A DNA stretch of 64,000 nt from Patescibacteria group bacterium (GTDB lineage Bacteria > Patescibacteriota > Minisyncoccia > Phycocordibacterales > PALSA-1337). The notes under the pieces are model-generated. The model saw nothing but the letters and a program-made list of their open reading frames with translations. It made no database searches and was not told where the DNA came from. Where the stretch lies: NCBI GenBank assembly GCA_038065395.1, contig JBBTRB010000004.1, positions 6,042 to 70,041 on the forward strand, in the 5' to 3' direction. Both the position numbers and the translations under genes were made by a program. Position 1 is the stretch's first letter. Every line of letters begins with the position of its first letter. Below are positions 30 through 14,789 of this stretch, piece after piece.

Positions 30-3000
30 TTGGAAATACAGACTCGAGACGTCATCTTCTCAACTGGAGTGGGTGCAGCCACTGAAGCAATGCGTCTTTT
101 GAATACCGGTAACCTCGGTGTGGGTACATCTTCTCCATACGCCAAACTCTCCGTAGTGGGTGAGATCGTCGGTGCATACTTCACTGCTACCACCACAGCT
201 ACATCAACATTCGGGGGTTCACTGGCAGTGACCGAAGCAAACGCAACCTCTACCTTCGCAGGAGGTATTGATCTCTCTGATGGATGTTTCGCTCTCGATG
301 GTGTGTGTATTGGGGCGGGTAGTGGTGCTGGCACAGTCAACTCTGGAACCCTCGGCCAAGTAGCATTCTATGCAGCGAACGGTACTGCAGTCTCTGGTAC
401 CTCGACACTCATTCTCCTCGATGAGAAGGTGGGTATTGGAACTTCATCTCCATGGGCCACCCTCGCAGTCAACCCAGTAGCAGGCCTTGCCGCTAACCAA
501 TTCGTCATAGGTTCATCTACCGCAACTGCTTTCATTGTTAACAATAGTGGGAATGTGGGGGTTGGTACGTCGAGTATAAAGAGTAAGCTCGCTATTCAGA
601 GAACGGATGGAAGTCACGTGGAAGTTTTCCCTAATTCTGGCGATTTACTCGAAATATATCAGGCTGCCGATGAAATTCGCGCTCTTCATATTGATTCGGA
701 TGGTAATACTACCATTGCAAATAGTGTCGGAAACATGTTCACTTCATCTGGTTCATCGGTCTCACTTGCGGCAGTCAATGGAATAGCACGTTTCTTCATT
801 GATACTACAAGCAACGTCGGCATCGGCACCACCTCCCCATACGCCAAACTCTCCGTAGTGGGTGAGATCGTCGGTGCATACTTCACAGCCACAACCACAG
901 CTACATCAACATTCGGGGGTTCACTGGCAGTGACCGAAGCAAACGCAACCTCTACCTTCGCAGGAGGTATTGATCTCTCTGATGGATGTTTCGCTCTCGA
1001 TGGTGTGTGTATTGGGGCGGGTGCAGGATCGGGGACTGTCAATACAGGAACAGCAGGATACTTTGCATACTATCCAGCATCCAACACTACTGTAGATGAT
1101 CAAACAGTTCTCAATATTTCAGGATCTAATATAGGTATTGGTACATCGTCGCCATATGCAACATTGTCAGTCGTAGGTCAAGTTGTCGCATCACATTTCA
1201 ATGCTACATCAACTACAGCAACTTCAACGATCGCCAACGCATTGATTATTGGCAATTCGAACAATCTTAATGCTGATACGATCCCTCTCAGGATCAATAG
1301 TAATCAAACGAGCTTGGAATGGTGGACAGAATTCTCTGGAACTTCAGATGATCAGATCAAGATAGGTCGTGATGCGGCTACGGGACATGCGAAGATCCAG
1401 GCATTCAGAGACAACTCAGTCCACTCTCTCCTCCTCAACCCTGCTGGCGGTAGAGTCGGAGTCGCTACCACATCTCCTTTTGCCCGCTTCGCCATCAACC
1501 CACTCGCAGGAGACCTCTTTGCTTTCGCTATCGGTTCATCCACAAAGTCGCTTCTTGCTGTGTCCACTGAAGGATTTGGCACAACTACTCTTGCGGGTCT
1601 CAATATCTCAGGTCAAGCAACATCCACCTCGAACGTTGGATTCAATATCTCAGCGGGATGTTTTGCTATCAACGGCACCTGTATATCAGGTGGTGGTGCA
1701 GGATCTGGAACAGTCAACTCTGGTACTATCGGTCAAGTAGCCTTCTACTCAGCAAACGGCACTGCAGTATCTGGAACTTCTACCCTTATCCTTCTTGATG
1801 AGAAGGTGGGTATTGGTACGTCGTCACCATACGCAAAGCTCTCTGTTGTCGGGGAAGTTGTAGCACGTAACTTCACTGCTACGTCGACTACGGCGACCAC
1901 GACACTCGCAGGAGGCTTGCATGTGAACTCGGGTGCATTGGTAACAAACTTCTCGACAGGAGTTACTACCATCAGTACTCTTGAAGCCGGTAACTTCAAC
2001 TTCGAGGATAATGCAGGTATCAATAGTTGGGCAGATCTGACAGTCACATCTTCTGCTCCGGTTGATACTCCGCAGGGTTACATCGCATTCCTTGATGGTA
2101 ATCCTATGTTCTCGATATACGGAGAGTCGAATGGTACAGGTGTAGTGAAGAAGACTGCGGTGGGTATTGGAACATCGACTCCGTTCGCGCTCCTCTCTGT
2201 GCAAAATAATGCATTTGCTGCTTCTAGTACGTACAGTGTCTTCATTGCCTCATCAACTGCTGCATTTGCTACAACTACACATTTTGCGATCACAAATACA
2301 GGTAATGTCGGATTCGGTACATCTTCCCCATGGGCAACTCTCGCAGTTAACCCATCTGCAGGCTTTTCCTCTAACCAATTCGTCATCGGCTCATCAACAG
2401 CAACCAGCTTCCTCGTCACCAACAGAGGATTCGTAGGAGTAGGTACAACCTCACCATCTGCCCGCTTCGCCATCAACCCACTTGCAGGTGACCTCTTCGC
2501 CTTCGCTATCGGCTCATCTACCAAATCACTTTTGTCAGTATCAACCGAAGGATTTGGCACAACCACTCTCGCAGGGCTTGATATCTCTGGTCAAGCAACA
2601 TCTACCTCTAACGTTGGATTCAATATCTCAGCGGGATGTTTTGCTATCAACGGCACCTGTATATCAGGTGGTGGTGCAGGATCTGGAACAGTCAACTCTG
2701 GTACTATCGGTCAAGTAGCCTTCTACTCAGCAAACGGCACTGCAGTATCTGGAACTTCTACCCTTATCCTTCTTGATGAGAAGGTGGGTATTGGTACGTC
2801 GTCACCATACGCAAAGCTCTCTGTTGTCGGGGAAGTTGTAGCACGTAACTTCACTGCTACGTCGACTACGGCGACGAGTACGTTTGCAGCTACGACAACC
2901 GTGACTAATCTCCTTGCTAACAAGTTCGTAGATACCAACCAGAGTCGCTGGTTGTCATTGGCAGAGCTCGGTGGTAACCGTGGCTTCGGTCGATTTACCC

Positions 3001-6000
3001 AGTACAACCCAACAGTTGCGACTACCTCGTTCCATGCACCGACGAACTATTATCTCGCCACATCGACATTGAATTTGAGTTCATCTCGCTCGACGAACGA
3101 TTCGGGTGCCACATACAACCCTGTCAACAACTCGATCCTGATGATCAACAATAGTAACCTCATTTACGAGCATGATCTCGATGGTAAACTCCTCCGTACT
3201 ATCACCCTCGTCGGATTTGCTGATACAGAGTCTCTTGTCTGGATGTATGATGATATGTTTGCGATCGGCGAAGAATCGGCAGGTATGGGTATCAACTTTG
3301 GCCTCCGTATTCCGAATGGTACAACGACGATCAATAGAAACCTTGCTACACGTATAGACCTTACAGGTACGTTCGGTACTTCGAACCAAGGTGTCGAAGG
3401 TCTAGCATACGATCTCGATCGAGATGTCTTCTATATCGGTATCGAAGGCACAGGAGATACCATGAGTGTCTACACAGTTACTCGTTCAGGTGCGGTATCC
3501 GTAACGTTCTCAACATCAACATGGGCAGCTGCCGACATTGGTGATATTTCGGATCTCTACTATGACCGCAATACCGGACATATGTTCGCCGGAGTTGACC
3601 AGTGTAATGGTGAAGCCAACGGACCAGCATCGACGTTGTGTGACGGTATGATCGAGATCGATATGACGACAGGTGCGATCATCGACAAGATACATGCCCC
3701 TGCTGGCTTTAGTCAGGTTGAGGGTATCGGCTTTACTCCAGATGGACGTCTGATGTTCATGACCAGTGAAGGAGACATGTTCGCCAAATACATCGCCCAA
3801 GACCGTGGCACACCATTCTCCTTCGTCCAGTTCGCATCATCCACACCAGTCAACCTCAGTGTTCTCACTAACATCGGAGTAGGAACATCTACACCAGAAT
3901 ACGGCATCACAATCGCCACATCTACCAAGTCACAACTGGCCCTCTCTGCAGGTGCAGGTATCGCACAATGGGCATTCCGTAATGCAGGAGGTAATCTCTA
4001 TCTCAGTACCACTACTGTACTTGGTACAGCTACTACCTCTATCTCTGCCCTTGAAATCGCAGGAGATGGCTTCGGTACTACTACCCTTCGAGGTCTCAGT
4101 ATTCTCGGTCAAGCTACCTCTACCTCTAACGTCGGCTTCAATATCACGTCTGGCTGTTATGCAGTCAACGGTACTTGTGTCGGTGGTGGAGGTGTCGGTG
4201 GTGGATACTCAACCGTTCAAGATGAAGGCTCAGGTCTTGCTGCTCGATCCATCCTCAACTTCCTTGGCACTGGGGTGAGTTGCGTGGATGACGGTGTTGA
4301 TTCCACTGACTGTACGATCACTGCCGGTGCAGGATCGATGGCAATCGGTTCATCGGTGACAAGTGGAACGTCAGGTTCAGTCTTGTTCGTTGATAGTGGT
4401 GGTTTATTGGCTCAAGACAACAGTCATTTCTTCTGGGATGAGACGAACAACCGTCTCGGCCTCGGTACTACCTCGCCATACGCCAAACTCTCAGTGGTTG
4501 GTGAAGTCGTAGCCTCACACTTTACAGCAACATCTACCACTGCTACGAGTACATTCGCAGCTACGACAACAGTTCGCAATATAGTCTTCAATGGCAAACT
4601 AGTAGACACCAACCAGAGTCGCTGGTTGTCATTGGCAGAACTTGGTGGTAACCGTGGTTTCGGTCGCTTCACTCAGTACAACCCGACAGTTGCAACTACG
4701 ACATTCCACCCACCAACGAACTATTATCTCGCAACGTCTACGCTCAATTTGAGTTCTGTGACAGCCTCTAACAACTCTGGTGTCACCTATAACCCTGTTA
4801 ACAATAGCTTGTTCTTCATAAACAACAGTAACTTCATCTACGAACACGACCTTGATGGTAAGCATATACGTACTATTACCCTGGCAAACTTTACCGACAC
4901 GGAAGCATTGGCTTGGATGTATGATGATATGTTCGTGATCGGGGATGAGCAAGGAGGTCGCATAACGTATCTCCGTCTCCCGAATGGCACAACGACAGTC
5001 AACCGCAACGTAGGTACTACCATCTCCACATCAGCGACTTTTGGTGTGGGCAACTCGACTATCGAAGGCGTCACCTACGACCTCGATCGAGATGTCTTCT
5101 ATATCGGTATCGAGGGTTCTGGAACTGGTGCAGGAGTATATACGGTCACGCGTTCGGGTACGATCACGGCGACATTCTCTACCTCAACCTGGCAGACTGC
5201 CAACATTGGAGATGTATCAGACCTCTACTATGACCGCAACACTGGACATATGTTCGCCTCCGTTGACCAGTGTTACGGTGAGTCCAACGGTGTTGCGTCT
5301 ACGCTCTGTGACGGATTCATTGAGATCGATATGACAACAGGCGCGATTATTGACAAGATCAGTGCGCCATCAGGATTCTTCCAGGTCGAAGGTATCGGAT
5401 TCACTCCAGATGGACGACTCATGTTCTTGGATGGAGAAAACGACATGTTCGCCAAATACATCGCCCAAGACCGTGGCACACCATTCTCCTTCGTCCAGTT
5501 CGCATCATCCACACCAGTCAACCTCAGTGTTCTCACTAACATCGGAGTAGGAACATCTACACCAGAATACGGCATCACAATCGCCACATCTACCAAGTCA
5601 CAACTGGCCCTCTCTGCAGGTGCAGGTATCGCACAATGGGCATTCCGTAATGCAGGAGGTAATCTCTATCTCAGTACCACTACTGTACTTGGTACAGCTA
5701 CTACCTCTATCTCTGCCCTTGAAATCGCAGGAGATGGCTTCGGTACTACTACCCTTCGAGGTCTCAGTATTCTCGGTCAAGCTACCTCTACCTCTAACGT
5801 CGGCTTCAATATCACGTCTGGCTGTTATGCAGTCAACGGTACTTGTGTCGGTGGTGGAGGTGTCGGTGGTGGATACTCAACCGTTCAAGATGAAGGCTCA
5901 GGTCTTGCTGCTCGATCCATCCTCAACTTCCTTGGCACTGGGGTGAGTTGTATCGATGATGGGGTAGACTCTACCGATTGTACGATCAATACGTCTGCAG

Positions 6001-8753
6001 CATCTCTCTCCATCGGATCTGCTATCACCGGTGGCACACCAGGATCTGTCCTCTTCGTCGATGCAGGAGGTCTTATGGCACAGGACAATGCTGCGTTCTT
6101 TTGGGATTACACCAACGACAGACTCGGTCTCGGTAGCTCGACTCCATACGCAGCACTCTCGGTCGTCGCAAACGGTACCGCACCAAAATTCGTAGTCGCA
6201 ACATCAACTACTGGGGACAACCAACCACTCCTCTTCGTCAACGGTACAACGACAGGGGCACTCGACTGGGCACGTGTAGCGATCGGTACCACTACGACAT
6301 GGGGTGCAGAGTCGGGCCTCCGTGACCAGTTCACCGTGGCAGGCCGTATATATAGTACCTGGCGTGAGATGAGGTGTGACTTCCCGGGAGCGAGTTTGAC
6401 TGCACAGATAACTGCGACTACACCGAACTTCTGTGGAGGGTTCGCTTATCAGCCTGATACCTCGGGTCGCATGGAAAGTCCAGTGACTGTACAGGGAAAT
6501 GCAAACTATTCTCACAACCCACACGTGTTGCGTCTCATCTCCGGTGGAACAACAGACGCCTCTGCTTCGGGCGCTGGTGCCGCTATACGTTCGATCACTA
6601 CATTCTTTGCAGCCTCTTCGAGTCCAACGTTCGAGGTAGTTTCTCGCCTCGGCACATCGACTCAGGCATCGTTCTGGACAATGGCTTCTAGTTCTATTTA
6701 CATGATCGGTTTCCATAACATAACTGCAGGTACGGGTGGTGATGTATCTGTTATTCCTACAAATGCCATTATGTTCGTGGCAACCACGACAACCAACTGG
6801 ATAGCCCTCGTGCGTAATAACAGTACGTATACTTCATATGTCAACACAGGTGTCCCTACCACCACCTCACCAAACATTGCATTCAATCGTTTTCGTATTG
6901 AGGCGAATCAGAATGATGTCACGTTCGTGATCAATGGTAAGGTCGTGTCAAAGCTTGTAAGTAATGGCTCAAATATCCCAAGTACAAACCTCGGATACAT
7001 CATATCTGCCGGATCAACGGCTGCTGGTCGTGGCAAGACCATGGAAATCTCGCAGATACGTCTCTGGGTTGACGATCCGACTGGCGGAGGGATCTCAGAA
7101 GGTTTGCTCGCTGCTGCAAGTGACATGTCGGTCAAGAAAGAAGAAGACGAAGTCACCTTCGAAGATGTGCTGGGGGGATATAATTCTTCTGCAGAATCCG
7201 CCAATAGCATAGAGTATATGGCGAGAGACGCGCGTATGCTCGGTGAAGGAACTCTCGTGTCACTATCCACAACTACGGGTGAAGTAGTACAGAGGGCCCA
7301 AGGCACATACGATCCGTCACTATTCGGTGTAGTGAATATCTCGAGTGTACAGACGTTGGGACATATCAACGAACATACGGTAAAAGTTGCAACGGCCGGA
7401 AGAACGTACGTGCGCGTTAATACCGAAAACGGGCCAATAGTACCAGGAGATTACCTCACTTCTTCTTCTGTAGATGGAGTCGCTATGAAGGCGACAGGTG
7501 CAGGTCAGGTCATCGGACGAGCTATCGAAAAGTTCGACAAGGTTGGTGAGGAAGGACTCATCGTAACAACAGTTGAGCCATCCTATTATGTAGGTAATAC
7601 ATTCGCACTCAACTCTCTTGGCAACATGACAGCGCAGTCGTTCGCTTCACTCACTTCAAAATCTTTCGTAAAGGATGTTGAATATCTCACCGCATCGAGT
7701 ACCGAGACATTGGTAGGTGGTCTCGTTAGTATCAAGGTGTCATATTATAGAGATGTATCCGCAGCTTCGACGTCACCATTGCAGCTCGGTCTGATCACCG
7801 AAGATGTTCCATCTGAGATCAGAACCGCAGATGGGAAGCAGGTAGATCTGCTCAAGCTCTCGGCACTGATCGTGGCTGGACTCCAAGAGCAGAAAAAGAA
7901 GCTTGATGGTCTCCATATAGATACGGTTAACAATGAGCTCGTACTGAGCAAAGCTCTACGAGTAACCAGTATGGCCACATTCGGCGGAGGGCTCACGGTC
8001 GACAGTATCAGTTCTATCGGCACCAGTCTCACATTCAACAACGATACCGTATTCTTTGGCCGACCATACTTCAACACTGACACTGCAGGATTCGCAGTCA
8101 TCGGAGAGGGTGCACGAGATGTAGAAGTAGTATTCGATAGTGAGTATCTCGAACAGCCGATCGTCAACGCATCTATCGCACTCGATGATATAGGTGACGA
8201 AGATCAGGTTGCTGCAGTTTCCGAAGCATTGTTCGATCAAGATATCAGATTCCTGATCACCAAGAAGAGTGTCAAAGGATTCACGATCATCCTCAACAAG
8301 CCGGCACCACGAGATGTTCAGTTCAGTTGGATAGCCTTGGCAGTCAAAGGGGCACGAACTGCAACATCGAGTCAAGTTCAGAATCTACCTGTAGAGGAAG
8401 ACGAACAGGATCCTCAGGTTCCTGAGATCGAGATCGTCCCAGATCCAGATACACAGCCAATAGACGACACTCCGCCTCCTTCAGAAGAGGCGACGACAAC
8501 CATATCAAATGGGGAAGATGATCTTGTGACACCGCCCGTAGCAGAAGAAGAGTCGACTCAGGGAGATCAGACAGGATCGTCCCAAACAGAGGAAGAAGTA
8601 CCACAACCTGAGCCTGTTATAGAAACAGAAGATGCTCCTGAGCCAGAGGTGCAACAGACACCAGAAACATCTCAGGACTCATCAGCTGAAGATACTCCTG
8701 TGGCGTCTGATGATACAGGAGACTCGGATGAGAACGAACCAACCAATCCTTGA
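30..8753 (+). CDS. Giant (2907 aa or longer) Gly/Thr/Ser-rich repetitive surface fibre protein. The reading frame is open to nt 1, so the gene may start upstream of the window; the track uses a TTG start at 30. Contains many VGIGTSSPYAKLSVVGE-type repeats, two ~330-aa beta-propeller-like modules, an S74-intramolecular-chaperone-like domain (nt ~7600-7910) and an acidic Pro/Glu/Asp-rich C-terminal tail.
   Basis: Single uninterrupted frame. Large intragenic near-identical repeats at 136-320/838-1020, 1631-1880/2612-2877, ~2880-3900/~4555-5560 and 3781-4275/5449-5943. The motif GLITEDVPSEIRTADGKQVDLLKLSALIVAGLQEQKKKLDGL resembles the Peptidase_S74/endosialidase chaperone domain of phage tail fibres. 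Confidence 0.75.
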   Translation: MEIQTRDVIFSTGVGAATEAMRLLNTGNLGVGTSSPYAKLSVVGEIVGAYFTATTTATSTFGGSLAVTEANATSTFAGGIDLSDGCFALDGVCIGAGSGAGTVNSGTLGQVAFYAANGTAVSGTSTLILLDEKVGIGTSSPWATLAVNPVAGLAANQFVIGSSTATAFIVNNSGNVGVGTSSIKSKLAIQRTDGSHVEVFPNSGDLLEIYQAADEIRALHIDSDGNTTIANSVGNMFTSSGSSVSLAAVNGIARFFIDTTSNVGIGTTSPYAKLSVVGEIVGAYFTATTTATSTFGGSLAVTEANATSTFAGGIDLSDGCFALDGVCIGAGAGSGTVNTGTAGYFAYYPASNTTVDDQTVLNISGSNIGIGTSSPYATLSVVGQVVASHFNATSTTATSTIANALIIGNSNNLNADTIPLRINSNQTSLEWWTEFSGTSDDQIKIGRDAATGHAKIQAFRDNSVHSLLLNPAGGRVGVATTSPFARFAINPLAGDLFAFAIGSSTKSLLAVSTEGFGTTTLAGLNISGQATSTSNVGFNISAGCFAINGTCISGGGAGSGTVNSGTIGQVAFYSANGTAVSGTSTLILLDEKVGIGTSSPYAKLSVVGEVVARNFTATSTTATTTLAGGLHVNSGALVTNFSTGVTTISTLEAGNFNFEDNAGINSWADLTVTSSAPVDTPQGYIAFLDGNPMFSIYGESNGTGVVKKTAVGIGTSTPFALLSVQNNAFAASSTYSVFIASSTAAFATTTHFAITNTGNVGFGTSSPWATLAVNPSAGFSSNQFVIGSSTATSFLVTNRGFVGVGTTSPSARFAINPLAGDLFAFAIGSSTKSLLSVSTEGFGTTTLAGLDISGQATSTSNVGFNISAGCFAINGTCISGGGAGSGTVNSGTIGQVAFYSANGTAVSGTSTLILLDEKVGIGTSSPYAKLSVVGEVVARNFTATSTTATSTFAATTTVTNLLANKFVDTNQSRWLSLAELGGNRGFGRFTQYNPTVATTSFHAPTNYYLATSTLNLSSSRSTNDSGATYNPVNNSILMINNSNLIYEHDLDGKLLRTITLVGFADTESLVWMYDDMFAIGEESAGMGINFGLRIPNGTTTINRNLATRIDLTGTFGTSNQGVEGLAYDLDRDVFYIGIEGTGDTMSVYTVTRSGAVSVTFSTSTWAAADIGDISDLYYDRNTGHMFAGVDQCNGEANGPASTLCDGMIEIDMTTGAIIDKIHAPAGFSQVEGIGFTPDGRLMFMTSEGDMFAKYIAQDRGTPFSFVQFASSTPVNLSVLTNIGVGTSTPEYGITIATSTKSQLALSAGAGIAQWAFRNAGGNLYLSTTTVLGTATTSISALEIAGDGFGTTTLRGLSILGQATSTSNVGFNITSGCYAVNGTCVGGGGVGGGYSTVQDEGSGLAARSILNFLGTGVSCVDDGVDSTDCTITAGAGSMAIGSSVTSGTSGSVLFVDSGGLLAQDNSHFFWDETNNRLGLGTTSPYAKLSVVGEVVASHFTATSTTATSTFAATTTVRNIVFNGKLVDTNQSRWLSLAELGGNRGFGRFTQYNPTVATTTFHPPTNYYLATSTLNLSSVTASNNSGVTYNPVNNSLFFINNSNFIYEHDLDGKHIRTITLANFTDTEALAWMYDDMFVIGDEQGGRITYLRLPNGTTTVNRNVGTTISTSATFGVGNSTIEGVTYDLDRDVFYIGIEGSGTGAGVYTVTRSGTITATFSTSTWQTANIGDVSDLYYDRNTGHMFASVDQCYGESNGVASTLCDGFIEIDMTTGAIIDKISAPSGFFQVEGIGFTPDGRLMFLDGENDMFAKYIAQDRGTPFSFVQFASSTPVNLSVLTNIGVGTSTPEYGITIATSTKSQLALSAGAGIAQWAFRNAGGNLYLSTTTVLGTATTSISALEIAGDGFGTTTLRGLSILGQATSTSNVGFNITSGCYAVNGTCVGGGGVGGGYSTVQDEGSGLAARSILNFLGTGVSCIDDGVDSTDCTINTSAASLSIGSAITGGTPGSVLFVDAGGLMAQDNAAFFWDYTNDRLGLGSSTPYAALSVVANGTAPKFVVATSTTGDNQPLLFVNGTTTGALDWARVAIGTTTTWGAESGLRDQFTVAGRIYSTWREMRCDFPGASLTAQITATTPNFCGGFAYQPDTSGRMESPVTVQGNANYSHNPHVLRLISGGTTDASASGAGAAIRSITTFFAASSSPTFEVVSRLGTSTQASFWTMASSSIYMIGFHNITAGTGGDVSVIPTNAIMFVATTTTNWIALVRNNSTYTSYVNTGVPTTTSPNIAFNRFRIEANQNDVTFVINGKVVSKLVSNGSNIPSTNLGYIISAGSTAAGRGKTMEISQIRLWVDDPTGGGISEGLLAAASDMSVKKEEDEVTFEDVLGGYNSSAESANSIEYMARDARMLGEGTLVSLSTTTGEVVQRAQGTYDPSLFGVVNISSVQTLGHINEHTVKVATAGRTYVRVNTENGPIVPGDYLTSSSVDGVAMKATGAGQVIGRAIEKFDKVGEEGLIVTTVEPSYYVGNTFALNSLGNMTAQSFASLTSKSFVKDVEYLTASSTETLVGGLVSIKVSYYRDVSAASTSPLQLGLITEDVPSEIRTADGKQVDLLKLSALIVAGLQEQKKKLDGLHIDTVNNELVLSKALRVTSMATFGGGLTVDSISSIGTSLTFNNDTVFFGRPYFNTDTAGFAVIGEGARDVEVVFDSEYLEQPIVNASIALDDIGDEDQVAAVSEALFDQDIRFLITKKSVKGFTIILNKPAPRDVQFSWIALAVKGARTATSSQVQNLPVEEDEQDPQVPEIEIVPDPDTQPIDDTPPPSEEATTTISNGEDDLVTPPVAEEESTQGDQTGSSQTEEEVPQPEPVIETEDAPEPEVQQTPETSQDSSAEDTPVASDDTGDSDENEPTNP

Positions 8754-8766
8754 TGCCCAAGAAATA

Positions 8767-9777
8767 TTATTTTAGGGCACTTACTTGTTTGAGGGCTTCT
8801 TGATATACGACTTTTGAGAGGAGACTTGCAACATCGGACGCCTTATCCATATCTGTGCCACGTGTCATGATACAGATGAGATATGGGTGATAGGGGAGGT
8901 ATACGATACCGCAATCATGAAATTGTTTAATGTTGGAGGAGTCTGAATATCGTTCGCCAAACTTGTGTGAGACAACAGTGTCTCGAGGTAGATATTTCGT
9001 GATGCCTTTGTCGAACTCTGTCTCCGAAAGGGTAGACAGTAGCTCCTCGGAATTATGCTTACTCAGATATGATGCATTGAACAATACACGGAAAAAAGTC
9101 GCATAGTCTCTCACGTTCATAAAGTCCGCATCGCTACTCTGGGGCAGAGAAAGATGAAGATCCTCGAGTAACTTCCTGAAGCCGTCTTTCTCTGTAGCAA
9201 AAACCAGGGCTTCGGCCGCTTTGTTGTCTGAGTGTTTGATGCTGGCTTCGAGGAGTTTACGGATAGTGTGTGCCTTCGTGAGGTCGATGGATTGGGATGG
9301 TTTGAAATGCTGTTCAAAATCGATAGTCTGTAGGTCTTTGTTCGGAGGAATGATCGAGTCAAGGAGACCAGGTATTTCCTCTGATCTCTTGTAAAAATAC
9401 ATTGCAAGGGGAACTTTCATGAGCGAAGCGGGGAAGAAGTTTTCCTTCTCATTGATACCGAGCCACGGGCCGTTGTTGAGGTCACGATAATACACAGATG
9501 CATGAGTAATATCACGAGATGCCACTTTCTCCGTGATGACCTTCTCTAAAACTTCTTTGGAGGGACGTATGGTGTTTTGGGCGATGTAGTCTTGGCCGAA
9601 ACTGCATTCGAGCAATGGGTTCGTGAAAGAGGATTCAAGCGGATTCTCGCGAGATTCGTTGTAGGAACTGTATTCGCCGATAGAGTTCCTGAGCGCATGG
9701 CCTCTCCCTAGATAGAAAGCACCAATACCAACCAGGATAGGTAATACGACGAGAATAATGCGTGTATTCATGGTCAT
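8767..9777 (-). CDS. Membrane-anchored serine hydrolase, class A beta-lactamase-like fold (possible DD-peptidase or beta-lactamase-related protein)
   Basis: N-terminal TM helix; S-x-x-K (ASLMKV), S-D-N (HSDNKAA) and K-x-G (HKFGE) motifs with class-A-like spacing. Confidence 0.5.
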   Translation of the reverse strand: MTMNTRIILVVLPILVGIGAFYLGRGHALRNSIGEYSSYNESRENPLESSFTNPLLECSFGQDYIAQNTIRPSKEVLEKVITEKVASRDITHASVYYRDLNNGPWLGINEKENFFPASLMKVPLAMYFYKRSEEIPGLLDSIIPPNKDLQTIDFEQHFKPSQSIDLTKAHTIRKLLEASIKHSDNKAAEALVFATEKDGFRKLLEDLHLSLPQSSDADFMNVRDYATFFRVLFNASYLSKHNSEELLSTLSETEFDKGITKYLPRDTVVSHKFGERYSDSSNIKQFHDCGIVYLPYHPYLICIMTRGTDMDKASDVASLLSKVVYQEALKQVSALK

Positions 9778-9827: not shown

Positions 9828-10202
9828 ATGAAAAGCCCTGCATACACAAGAGGTTTCGTTGTTCCAATGCTCATCTTTGCCATTGTCGTTGTTTCTGGTA
9901 TCTCTTTTTATTTTTATCAGAGAGCGAGCAGAGACCCGCAGACTCGAGTCAAACAAGATGCGAGCAAACTCCTGGCAGAAATAGGTGCCATTGTGCTGTT
10001 GCCAACAGATGAGGAGCCGACCATCGCGACCATCACTGACCCAGAGAAACTCAAGGATCAAGTATTTTTCGCCAATGCCAAGCCTGGCTACAAGGTGCTG
10101 ATCTATGCCAAAGCTCGTAAAGTGTTTTTGTACGACCCTGTAGGCAAGAGGTTGATCGATGCTGCCCCTCTCTATTTTGGAGACGAGCCACTCGATAGCT
10201 AA
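9828..10202 (+). CDS. Small membrane-anchored protein, paralog 1 (N-terminal TM plus conserved C-terminal domain TVATITDPEKLKDQ.FFANAK.G.KVLIY..ARK.FLYD)
   Basis: Track ORF 9762-10202 trimmed to the Met before the TM segment (MKSPAYTRG...) to avoid overlap with the convergent gene. Near-duplicate of the next gene. Confidence 0.5.
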   Translation: MKSPAYTRGFVVPMLIFAIVVVSGISFYFYQRASRDPQTRVKQDASKLLAEIGAIVLLPTDEEPTIATITDPEKLKDQVFFANAKPGYKVLIYAKARKVFLYDPVGKRLIDAAPLYFGDEPLDS

Positions 10203-10678: not shown

Positions 10679-11464
10679 ATGTATAGAGCCTTCCTCATCA
10701 TCATATCTCTCGTGGTTATGGTGCCGCACGGTAGTTTTGTCCATGCGGAGGAATACACTTCTTCGAGCTATACAGTATTGCATCCCGTGCTCACGCCAGC
10801 AGGGTTCGGCACCTCAGGTTTGTATCGGATGTGGGGGAGTCTGACCGAGATCGCTATCGGTACCAGTACAGCCACAGATTATAGTGTACAGTCAGGCTTT
10901 CTCTACTACCCAGAAGTGACCGTGCCAGTCGTATCTCCTACGGCCGGCGATGCCCAAGTGACCCTTTCGTGGACTGCCGCGCAAGGGTTTTTGGGTTGGA
11001 CAGCGACCTCATATAGAGTAGGTCAGTCGACTGTCTCTGGAGGCCCGTATATCTATACTTCTGTAGGAGGGGTACTTTCTTCGATACGAACAAGTTTGAC
11101 CAACGGAACTCCTTATTATTTCGTCATTGTGGTCAACGATGCATATGGTAGTCCGATCGGCACATCGACCGAAGTCACCTCAACTCCTGTAGCAGGCACA
11201 ACACCTACTCCTGGAGACGGAGGGGGTGGTGGAGGTAGTACCTCTTATTTCGACTACATACTCGGTACCAACGTGTTCTGTTCGATTGAGGGTGACGGGG
11301 AGCATAGAGGCGCTGATCTCAACCGTGACGGAAGGGTGAACCTTGTTGATCTCAGTATCTTGCTCTACCATCTCGGCAGATTTGATCCACGATATGATTG
11401 TAATTCTGACGATAAGGTCGACTTCGTAGATATTTCTATCATGTTCTATCATTGGACAGAATAA
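10679..11464 (+). CDS. Secreted protein with an FN3-like middle domain and a C-terminal type-I dockerin (two calcium-binding repeats, nt ~11315-11443)
   Basis: Signal peptide. ADLNRDGRVNLVD and DCNSDDKVDFVD match the dockerin D-x-N-x-D-G-x-V-N-x-x-D repeat. Confidence 0.6.
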   Translation: MYRAFLIIISLVVMVPHGSFVHAEEYTSSSYTVLHPVLTPAGFGTSGLYRMWGSLTEIAIGTSTATDYSVQSGFLYYPEVTVPVVSPTAGDAQVTLSWTAAQGFLGWTATSYRVGQSTVSGGPYIYTSVGGVLSSIRTSLTNGTPYYFVIVVNDAYGSPIGTSTEVTSTPVAGTTPTPGDGGGGGGSTSYFDYILGTNVFCSIEGDGEHRGADLNRDGRVNLVDLSILLYHLGRFDPRYDCNSDDKVDFVDISIMFYHWTE

Positions 11465-11472
11465 ATACTCTC

Positions 11473-12366
11473 ATGAATATTCACAAAATCACTACATCTA
11501 TACTCTTGCTCGTAAGTGTATTGGTGCCCATTCATACACTGAGCGCGCAGGCCAATGCCAACACGTCTCCTCGAATATACATAGAAGCACCTACGCGAGT
11601 TTCTGTGGGTTCAGAGTTCGTGGTGAAAGTATTGGTTGATAGTGAATCGCCGATCAATGCTATGGAGATAGCACTCACCTATCCGGGAACATTCCTCAAA
11701 CCAAGTGCATTCAACGAGAGCTCGTCGATCATTCAGCTCTGGCAGGACAAAGACTGGAGATCAACACCAGGTAAGATCATGTTGAGTGGCGGCATACCGC
11801 GTGCTTTTGCAGGTAACAAAGGAGAGGTCGGACGTCTGACATTCAAAGCTGTTGCGCCAGGAGACGTCACTGTGTCATTTACCGTTGCGGATACCTATTA
11901 TGCTGATGGGTTAGGAACTCGTACTACTGCCCGTACGTCCCCTGTACGCTTGAGTGTTTTTGCTGTTACTCCAGGTTCACCACAGGTAATAACTACCACT
12001 GTGGTACAAGATGAGGCATTGAATTCAGATACGCAACCCCCAGTATTCGGCCTCACTGACACTCTACGTAACCCTTCCAAAGGCAATCATCTGGCTATTT
12101 TCGAAGTGAAGGATACTGGTTCCGGTATTGCCAAGGTGGAAATACGTACCAACTCTCTGGTGTCCTGGAGTGATTGGCATGAAGTGACCAATCCAGCCGA
12201 AGTCCGATCTGGAACTTTCAAGTATCAGTTGCGTGCCACTGACAACACGGGGAATATCACCGTCGAAACATTCTATATCCGTTCAAAACTCATCTTGATA
12301 CTGAGCATTGTTATACTCAGTTTTGCCTTCCTTGCTGGTGCAATATACTTTATAATTAAACGGTGA
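11473..12366 (+). CDS. Cohesin-domain protein with a C-terminal TM anchor
   Basis: Signal peptide, then VGSEFVVKVLVDSESPINAMEIALTYPGTFL...GEVGRLTFKAVAPGDVTVSF (cohesin-like beta-sandwich signature). C-terminal hydrophobic helix LILILSIVILSFAFLAGAIYFII. Start trimmed from track 11452. Confidence 0.55.
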   Translation: MNIHKITTSILLLVSVLVPIHTLSAQANANTSPRIYIEAPTRVSVGSEFVVKVLVDSESPINAMEIALTYPGTFLKPSAFNESSSIIQLWQDKDWRSTPGKIMLSGGIPRAFAGNKGEVGRLTFKAVAPGDVTVSFTVADTYYADGLGTRTTARTSPVRLSVFAVTPGSPQVITTTVVQDEALNSDTQPPVFGLTDTLRNPSKGNHLAIFEVKDTGSGIAKVEIRTNSLVSWSDWHEVTNPAEVRSGTFKYQLRATDNTGNITVETFYIRSKLILILSIVILSFAFLAGAIYFIIKR

Positions 12367-14387
12367 ACCTTCTCATCAAAGGCTATATAGTTTTTGTGGC
12401 AGTCTGTGCCATCTTCGTTGTCTCAGCTCTTCCTGTATCTGCGGCGCAACTTATCTTGTCACCAGCGAGTGGAACTTTCACGGTAGGGAGCACATTCGAT
12501 GTGTCGATATTCCTCGATAGTGAAGATCAGTCTGTCAATGTTGTCAATGCTGAGATTTTGTTCCCTCCAGACAAACTCCAGCTCGTTTCGCCTACAACTG
12601 GCCAGTCGATCATCAGTGTGTGGACTGCACAGCCTGTATTCAATAATAAAGATGGACTTATCCAGCTCACCGGCGGTATCCCTGGTGGGATCAAGGTTAG
12701 TCGAGGTCTGATCACGACATTGACATTCCGGGTCAAGCAAACAGGCAATCCTGTCCTTGTCCGTTTCTCCGACAAATCCACCGTACTTGCCAATGACGGC
12801 AAAGGCACTGCGGTTCTCAGTGGTTTCCAGAACGGTATCGTCAATCTGATATTGCCACCACCTGCTGGGCCAGTGGTTTCTTCGGAGACGCACCCTGACC
12901 AGTCAGAATGGTATTCCAACAAAAATGTCATCCTGCGTTGGGCAAGCGTCAATGCTGTAGAAAAATACAGCTATGTTATCGATAAGAATCCTGTAGGTAT
13001 TCCAGATAACATCGCCGATGGTGACAATGGTAGTGTGGTATACAAAGACCTAGAGAATGGTATTCATTATTTCCATATAAAGTCCCTTCGTGATGGAGCG
13101 TGGGGAGGTGTAACTCATTTCGGTATCAACATAGACGCCGAAGCACCTGCAGAATTCCCTGTAGAAGTCATCCCTTCGAGTCGTACATCGAGTAAAAACC
13201 AGATCATCAACTTCCTAACCACAGACTCTCTGTCTGGTATCGCATACTATGAAGTCAAAACCATACCTCTGAGTCAAGGCTCATCAGGTGAGCAATTGTT
13301 CGTAGAGACGATGAGTCCTCATCAGTCTGCACTCGATCTTGGTTCCTATGATGTCATTATTCGAGCGTATGACAATGCGGGCAACTATAGAGATGTGCAA
13401 CAACGCATCAAGATTGTTGCGCCGTTCCTCGAATTTGTAACGGATCAAGGTGTTCGTATCATTGGCGGGGCTATCATACCGTGGATGTGGGTGTGGATAT
13501 TGATACTCATTTTCATTCTCATCACAGCATTTCTGGCATGGTCTACTCGACGATGGCACCATGATATACACTCCAATCGCCAAAAGAGGATTTTGCCAGA
13601 CGCCCTGAAATCCCAACTTTCAGAATTGCAAAAATACAAACAAAAGTATGGCAGTCTGGCGATCCTGCTTGCTGTCGGAGTGTTGTCTTTGTTCGGCGGC
13701 AACGTGGCAGATGCTCAACAGAAGATAGAGCTTGCACCACCTTCGGTCTCCACAGTCTCACGTGATATTTCCAATGAAGAGATCTTCTATATCGGTGGTA
13801 ACACATTGTCACCACTTACCGAAGTCGTGATCTATCTGCAAAACATGCAAACTGGGGAGGCGGTCAGTGAGACCGTCACTTCTGACAAAACCGGCGAATG
13901 GTTCTATCGTCATCCGCGTTTCCTCTCTCCAGGCAACTACGTCTTGTGGACTCAAGGGAGATCCGGCGAGATCATGAGTCCTCCTGGTCCACAGATCGAG
14001 CTCAAAGTAGTTCAGACGGCGATACAGTTCGGTGGATCCCGCTTGAGCTATGAGACACTCTATCTCGGTCTTACTCTCATTTTGCTGTTCATCGTGATCC
14101 TCCTGGGCACCTTCATCATCTATCACGCGTATCATGGCAGGAAGAAACACAAGCTCTTCTGGAAAGAAGTCCGTGAAGCCGAAGAAGCCGTACGCAGAGG
14201 TTTTGCAGTGCTCAAGCGTGACATCGAAGCCGAGCTCTCTATCGTGCGCAAAGCCAAGCTCAGCCCATCGGTCCGCGAAGAGATCAAACAGCGAGAGATG
14301 CAACTTCTCGGCGATCTCGAGACGGTTCGTGGTCATATTGGCAAGGAGGTGTGGGATATTGGGCAGATCGAGCAGTCGTCGATGTAG
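12363..14387 (+). CDS. Large multi-TM protein with an N-terminal cohesin-like domain, FN3/Ig-like modules and a C-terminal cytoplasmic coiled-coil
   Basis: GTG start overlapping the upstream stop (GTGA). TFTVGSTFDVSIFLDSEDQSVNVVNAEILFPPDKL...GLITTLTFRVKQTG cohesin-like. Three predicted TM helices. Confidence 0.55.
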   Translation: MNLLIKGYIVFVAVCAIFVVSALPVSAAQLILSPASGTFTVGSTFDVSIFLDSEDQSVNVVNAEILFPPDKLQLVSPTTGQSIISVWTAQPVFNNKDGLIQLTGGIPGGIKVSRGLITTLTFRVKQTGNPVLVRFSDKSTVLANDGKGTAVLSGFQNGIVNLILPPPAGPVVSSETHPDQSEWYSNKNVILRWASVNAVEKYSYVIDKNPVGIPDNIADGDNGSVVYKDLENGIHYFHIKSLRDGAWGGVTHFGINIDAEAPAEFPVEVIPSSRTSSKNQIINFLTTDSLSGIAYYEVKTIPLSQGSSGEQLFVETMSPHQSALDLGSYDVIIRAYDNAGNYRDVQQRIKIVAPFLEFVTDQGVRIIGGAIIPWMWVWILILIFILITAFLAWSTRRWHHDIHSNRQKRILPDALKSQLSELQKYKQKYGSLAILLAVGVLSLFGGNVADAQQKIELAPPSVSTVSRDISNEEIFYIGGNTLSPLTEVVIYLQNMQTGEAVSETVTSDKTGEWFYRHPRFLSPGNYVLWTQGRSGEIMSPPGPQIELKVVQTAIQFGGSRLSYETLYLGLTLILLFIVILLGTFIIYHAYHGRKKHKLFWKEVREAEEAVRRGFAVLKRDIEAELSIVRKAKLSPSVREEIKQREMQLLGDLETVRGHIGKEVWDIGQIEQSSM

Positions 14388-14411: not shown

Positions 14412-14789
14412 ATGAAAATATCACATTCTATATTTATCTCAGTTTACTCATTAATCTTATTAGGCTCGATTATTTTTGGGGTGAATTTAGTTTTCAATAA
14501 GGGTGTCAGACCTGATGATTTTACAGAATTATTACTCGCAGCCGGTTATCTATTGGGTTTGATTTTCTCTATTTTTTTACATGTGAGAAGTCTCAAAAGA
14601 TTGGCTAATGTTGAGCAGAAATTATTCCTCGGAGTCTCTTATCTGAATCTCGCGGTATTTGTCGTTGGAATTTTCATGAGCTTAACCTGTAGAGATGCGG
14701 GTTGTATGGTAGTGTTTATCCCCATGCTCATTGTTATCTCATTATGGTTATTTAGTTTTCTTGCTGGAATAATTGCGCTGAAGAGATAA
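14412..14789 (+). CDS. Hypothetical small integral membrane protein (AT-rich gene)
   Basis: ORF with 3-4 hydrophobic helices; GC content much lower than neighbouring genes. Confidence 0.4.
   Translation: MKISHSIFISVYSLILLGSIIFGVNLVFNKGVRPDDFTELLLAAGYLLGLIFSIFLHVRSLKRLANVEQKLFLGVSYLNLAVFVVGIFMSLTCRDAGCMVVFIPMLIVISLWLFSFLAGIIALKR

Follow-up and report, generated by a model that had tools for sequence, protein, structure and literature searches.

A cohesin-dockerin gene cassette conserved across Parcubacteria and its likely role in anchoring a secreted surface protein

Three consecutive genes in a Patescibacteria genome from Hainich groundwater encode a secreted dockerin protein (g1) and two membrane-anchored proteins with cohesin folds (g2 and g3). 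Nearly all of the related species examined carry the same trio with its order unchanged, and the trio looks like a core means of holding a surface protein on the membrane of the cell and not like a cellulose-degrading machine. On balance, the cassette is likely to serve Parcubacteria throughout the lineage as a non-enzymatic anchoring module built of cohesin and dockerin. In the initial annotation, a dockerin gene was followed by two genes for membrane-anchored cohesin proteins, with co-transcription probable, in an ultra-small bacterium that is not cellulolytic; this description is supported, and it is strengthened by synteny across Parcubacteria and by gene fusions.

Few uncultured bacteria in groundwater are as abundant as Parcubacteria, and to our knowledge almost nothing is known about how they construct their cell surface and make contact with other cells. 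Searches of the literature on cohesins and dockerins in Patescibacteria, CPR, Parcubacteria, Paceibacteria or episymbionts rendered nothing describing the cassette and no published proposal that CPR bacteria attach by means of cohesin and dockerin. A preprint on giant genes in Omnitrophota concerns different proteins.

The window, i.e. the whole stretch of 64 kb that was analysed, contains the following features in and around the cassette (nt, positions in the window; aa, positions in the protein).

30..8753, plus strand: giant secreted protein, of which the C-terminal 2907 aa of 3615 aa lie in the window
8767..9777, minus strand: gene of the Beta-lactamase2 family (Pfam E 5e-31)
9828..10202, plus strand: sA, a small paralogue of sB with a TM helix at the N-terminus and, on the outside, a conserved domain of ~90 aa
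10270..10662, plus strand: sB, a small membrane protein anchored at its N-terminus, with the motif PTVATITDPEKLKDQPFFANAK.G.KVLIY; the dockerin gene follows directly
10679..11464, plus strand: g1, secreted dockerin protein with a signal peptide (aa 1-23)
g1 aa 24-80, nt 10748-10918, plus strand: conserved N-terminal module
g1 aa 81-172, plus strand: FN3 domain
g1 aa 179-186, plus strand: glycine linker
g1 aa 205-261, nt 11291-11461, plus strand: dockerin with the repeats DLNRDGRVNLVD and DCNSDDKVDFVD
11473..12366, plus strand: g2, with a signal peptide; assigned by AF2 model, Foldseek, NCBIfam and paralogy to the N-terminal half of g3
g2 aa 33-163, plus strand: cohesin-fold domain
g2 aa 190-268, plus strand: Ig-like domain, OmpL47-type
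g2 aa 272-296, plus strand: C-terminal TM helix, then a 2-residue cytoplasmic end
12363..14387, plus strand: g3, with a signal peptide at the N-terminus
g3 aa 28-163, nt 12444-12851, plus strand: cohesin
g3 aa 171-257, plus strand: FN3/Y_Y_Y-like domain
g3 aa 267-351, plus strand: Big_13-like domain
g3 aa about 372-395, plus strand: TM1, then a basic cytoplasmic loop
g3 aa 431-451, plus strand: TM2
g3 aa 461-556, plus strand: outside Ig-like domain
g3 aa 563-673, plus strand: TM3 and a cytoplasmic helix of ~85 aa
14412..14789, plus strand: polytopic membrane protein of 125 aa, 24 nt downstream of g3

The open reading frames were located as first annotated, at 10679-11464, 11473-12366 and 12363-14387. 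The g1 gene starts with ATG and encodes 261 aa, and g3 starts with GTG and encodes 674 aa. For g2 (297 aa) the mechanical open reading frame opens at TTG 11452 and the public gene calls start at ATG 11473. Only 8 nt separate g1 from g2, and the GTGA overlap between the g2 stop and the g3 start is real in the sequence. Promoter and terminator scans of the window were uninformative overall; no terminator-like site was found at the junctions of the three genes, and the weak ones fall within g3. Rfam rendered only four tRNAs in the window. The three genes are probably co-transcribed.

By Pfam threshold and tandem calcium loops the C-terminus of g1 is classified as a type I dockerin. Such a domain has two tandem segments of ~22 residues, each with the calcium-binding loop D-x-N/D-x-D-G/D-x-V/I-x-x-x-D followed by a helix, and g1 carries both, DLNRDGRVNLVDLSILLYHL (213-232) and DCNSDDKVDFVDISIMFYHW (240-259). 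The two repeats quoted in the initial annotation are present; both are kept across 36 aligned g1 homologues, and a scan of the 64 kb in six frames found no further match to the calcium-loop pattern. Pfam Dockerin_1 (PF00404) scores 26.1 bits against g1 (gathering score 22.9, E 1e-5) in an alignment spanning repeat 1 only. Many members of the g1 family have a precomputed PF00404 match, and the best PDB sequence matches of g1 are solved dockerins (4fl4_A, E 2.5e-4). No catalytic domain was found in g1 with Pfam. The N-terminal module has no sequence relative in PDB and no match in PHROG; among the best 140 matches to it, 84 of the 98 carriers of at least 200 aa end in a dockerin. The stalk of g1 has extra Ig domains in some species.

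The cohesin fold, a nine-stranded flattened beta-sandwich (jelly-roll) that superposes on solved cohesins, was found in the N-terminal domains of both g2 and g3, whose predicted models match solved cohesins in Foldseek, cellulosomal ones included. Pfam Cohesin (PF00963) did not match the g2 and g3 of the window, and a profile of g3 orthologues did not reach the cohesins among PDB sequences; cohesin membership therefore rests on the fold and on the orthologues. Among 69 full-length g3 orthologues with 50-75% identity, 34 are matched by Pfam Cohesin (E<=0.01, best 4e-8). The cohesins of the initial annotation hold for the predicted fold and the g3 orthologues but not for the Pfam HMM on the two proteins of the window, and the Pfam check that it proposed came out positive for Dockerin_1 on g1 and negative for Cohesin on g2 and g3. 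With phmmer or profiles, g2 and g3 matched PDB sequences by chance only, for example Fab light chains and ATP synthase b.

The three TM segments and the cytoplasmic helical tail first described for g3 are present in the predicted model. It shows a signal-type helix at the N-terminus, a TM helix at ~374-407, a hydrophobic segment (431-451) in a low-confidence loop and a continuous TM-plus-cytoplasmic helix at 563-673. Basic residues come after TM1 and TM3, in agreement with the positive-inside rule. More than 1000 full-length homologues of g3 with ~50% identity are found in Parcubacteria, and g2 is a paralogue of the N-terminal half of g3. Mean pairwise identity is 57% for the g3 cohesin, 47% for the rest of g3, 47% for the dockerin and 27% for the g2 cohesin. 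Within g3 the cohesin is best conserved, and g2 evolves faster than its paralogue. A word-based search for g2 homologues found four proteins only, and HMMs built from the open reading frames of the loci were needed.

Gene order was compared in species-representative genomes from more than 15 named candidate groups of Parcubacteria. In 67 of 68 loci g3 has the dockerin gene upstream, and in 69 of 73 it has a gene-2-like cohesin gene there. In three loci (L009, L052 and L058) g1 stands immediately before g3 without g2, which makes g1 and g3 the core pair. Several fusions were found. A g2-like module is joined to g3 in proteins of ~970 aa and in three loci, and P0238 consists of g1 including the dockerin together with the Ig domain and TM helix of g2-type, followed by g3 with a 4-nt overlap. 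In P0295 the g1 ectodomain is joined directly to the membrane half of g3 with both dockerin and cohesin absent, but this is a single metagenomic protein that may be an assembly chimera. P0241, P0297 and P0304 have a C-terminal TM helix of their own in place of the dockerin. The fusions and the substitutions of dockerin by TM helix suggest that the job of the dockerin is membrane tethering. Mirror-tree partial correlations with the dockerin (0.32 for g3 and 0.45 for g2) do not discriminate between the two cohesins as its partner and are confounded by shared descent.

With domain identities, topology model, gene order and fusions established in this analysis, a mechanism can be proposed for the anchoring module. 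The g3 protein, usually together with g2, would sit in the cytoplasmic membrane and present its cohesin on a stalk of Ig/FN3 domains. The g1 protein would be secreted by Sec, and its two-repeat calcium-type dockerin would dock non-covalently on the cohesin of g3 and/or g2. Docking would keep the FN3 stalk and the 57-residue N-terminal module of g1 at the cell surface, beside large fibre proteins. The N-terminal module would most likely engage a surface structure encoded nearby, for example the large fibre proteins or sB, and the polytopic body of g3 with its conserved cytoplasmic helix would couple the complex to the cell interior. The binding of the g1 dockerin to the cohesins of g3 and g2, the preferred cohesin and the partner of the N-terminal module are what we infer here. 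Partners outside the cassette are possible because some genomes have further cohesins and dockerins; in locus L061 a second cohesin gene scores 44.6 bits against a Pfam threshold of 24.1.

The neighbouring genes are less constant than the cassette. The giant protein contains SdiA-regulated/phytase-like beta-propeller domains (Pfam) and a C-terminal domain of ~400 aa (aa 2390-2790, nt about 7197-8399) with no sequence match in Pfam, PHROG or PDB. In 19 of 34 loci the cassette is preceded on the same strand by an open reading frame of at least 1000 aa, and in ten loci besides the window this large protein has the same C-terminal domain. The giant fibre gene that was first noted beside the cassette is accordingly a frequent theme but not a rule. 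The small protein sA is 39-47% identical to sB-family genes of L004, L005 and L007; HMM matches to sB are found upstream in 18 of 49 loci, and in L089 sB is also found upstream of a dockerin-less g1 variant. The beta-lactamase-like hydrolase had been counted as part of the locus, but homologues occur in only 4 of 83 loci, in two of them at the same position; it can be called an occasional neighbour at most and is probably no member of the system. The membrane protein encoded at 14412-14789 has no homologue in the 83 loci and, not being conserved beside the cassette, is probably not a member either.

Cohesins attached to the cell surface are known from Clostridium thermocellum, where the anchoring scaffoldins SdbA, OlpB, Orf2p, OlpA and OlpC combine a cohesin with a surface anchor, bind the cell wall via SLH domains and hold an enzyme-loaded scaffoldin. 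In contrast, g2 is here anchored by one TM helix and g3 by three, with a conserved cytoplasmic helix, and the place of the cargo is taken by a small FN3 protein whose N-terminal module is novel. The best structural matches of g2 and g3 include cohesins of Clostridium perfringens glycoside hydrolases (PDB 2vo8, 2jh2, 2o4e; NagJ cohesin and FN3, 2w1n) and a cohesin of Archaeoglobus fulgidus (2xdh). These are likewise single modules outside any cellulosome, and 2w1n also has an FN3-type domain straight after the cohesin. However, the modules of C. perfringens are carried by secreted enzymes and assemble enzyme complexes, whereas both cohesins are here on integral membrane proteins with a non-enzymatic dockerin partner, and across Parcubacteria the three genes are conserved as a cassette.

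The CPR-type Pam pilus of Ca. Mycosynbacter amalyticus offers another comparison. In that system PamR has an N-terminal strand, FnIII domains and a TM segment, and PamC/D have two beta domains and a C-terminal TM segment (bioRxiv 10.64898/2026.03.03.709456). The Pam pilus resembles the cassette in being CPR-specific and Sec-dependent, with Ig/FnIII-type domains and C-terminal TM tethers in a single membrane. The N-terminal module of g1 also weakly resembles PamT, the proposed tip protein: residues 5-85 match NCBIfam CPR_pilus_PamT (NF058579) with E 3.6e-5, and the match recurs in 15 of 36 members of the g1 family (best E 7e-7).

It is conceivable, though rather unlikely, that the cassette forms the membrane base of a filament or fibre specific to Parcubacteria, an analogue of the Pam pilus. 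The g1 protein would be a tip or adaptor of pilin-like type, its N-terminal module engaging in strand complementation with subunits of the fibre; g2 and g3 would serve in assembly and anchoring, as do the membrane-anchored chaperones PamC/PamD or the anchor PamR, and dockerin and cohesin would replace the TM helix of PamR. In architecture the cassette is analogous to PamR and to PamC/D (bioRxiv 10.64898/2026.03.03.709456), and the large fibre-like genes upstream fit such a role. However, the PamT match of g1 reaches 23.3 bits, far under the equivalog cut-off of 240, and covers only positions 6-88 of the 241 in the model, signal peptide included. The few neighbouring proteins scanned (the window and L004-L007) had no NCBIfam Pam-family match, with PamA/B/E pilins and PapD-like chaperones not detected, and the N-terminal domains of g2 and g3 are predicted to be cohesin folds, not PapD-like. 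Moreover, Pam pilins are reported mainly in Saccharimonadia and Microgenomatia, whereas the cassette is found in Parcubacteria, and the description of the pilus does not mention cohesin or dockerin (bioRxiv 10.64898/2026.03.03.709456).

Less probable still is that the genes are neighbours only through shared regulation of envelope genes, with the cohesin folds of g2 and g3 binding a glycan, a host surface or an S-layer and the g1 dockerin binding a cohesin encoded elsewhere. Cohesin-like folds are able to serve other roles, the g2 and g3 of the window are under the Pfam Cohesin threshold, and L061 illustrates that additional cohesin and dockerin genes exist. Against this stand the adjacency of the genes across deep divergence, the 4-nt overlaps, the fusions joining parts of g1 with parts of g2 and g3, the TM helices that substitute for the dockerin in g1 variants and the stronger constraint on the g3 cohesin than on the rest of g3. 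A minimal cellulosome-like display, with g2 and g3 as anchoring scaffoldins for dockerin-bearing hydrolases encoded elsewhere and g1 as one client among many, would use the domain types of cellulosomes and agree with the cellulosomal cohesins among the structural matches, but it is highly improbable: g1, the sole client conserved in synteny, has no catalytic domain, the window has no other dockerin motif, the extra dockerin proteins of L061 (Ig domains only) and L086 (no other Pfam domain) have no catalytic domain, genomes of Parcubacteria are small (<1 Mb; the largest contig bearing the locus is 762 kb), and where a cellulosome has a multi-cohesin scaffoldin, a carbohydrate-binding module and dockerin-bearing glycoside hydrolases, the 64-kb window has one cohesin per protein, none in tandem, and no carbohydrate-binding module.

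As an anchoring module, the cassette would widen the uses of cohesin and dockerin from enzyme scaffolding to a structural protein anchored on an integral membrane receptor, with a hint of a connection to the CPR-type Pam pilus that was described recently. The three-gene module, with its order kept in nearly all species examined, is a concrete and testable handle on the surface of Parcubacteria; g3 could be a marker or antigen for these bacteria, and g1 is usable as bait for its surface partner. A bolder and doubtful proposal is that the cassette is the conserved membrane socket of a hitherto unrecognised surface appendage of Parcubacteria, where a PamT-like g1 would cap or root a fibre of the large upstream proteins. 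This g1 would be plugged non-covalently into g3, the polytopic receptor with the cohesin, and the cytoplasmic coiled coil of g3 would link the appendage to the interior. If true, this would be the first cohesin-dockerin joint at the root of an organelle of pilus or fibre type, and it would be nearly universal in a major CPR class.

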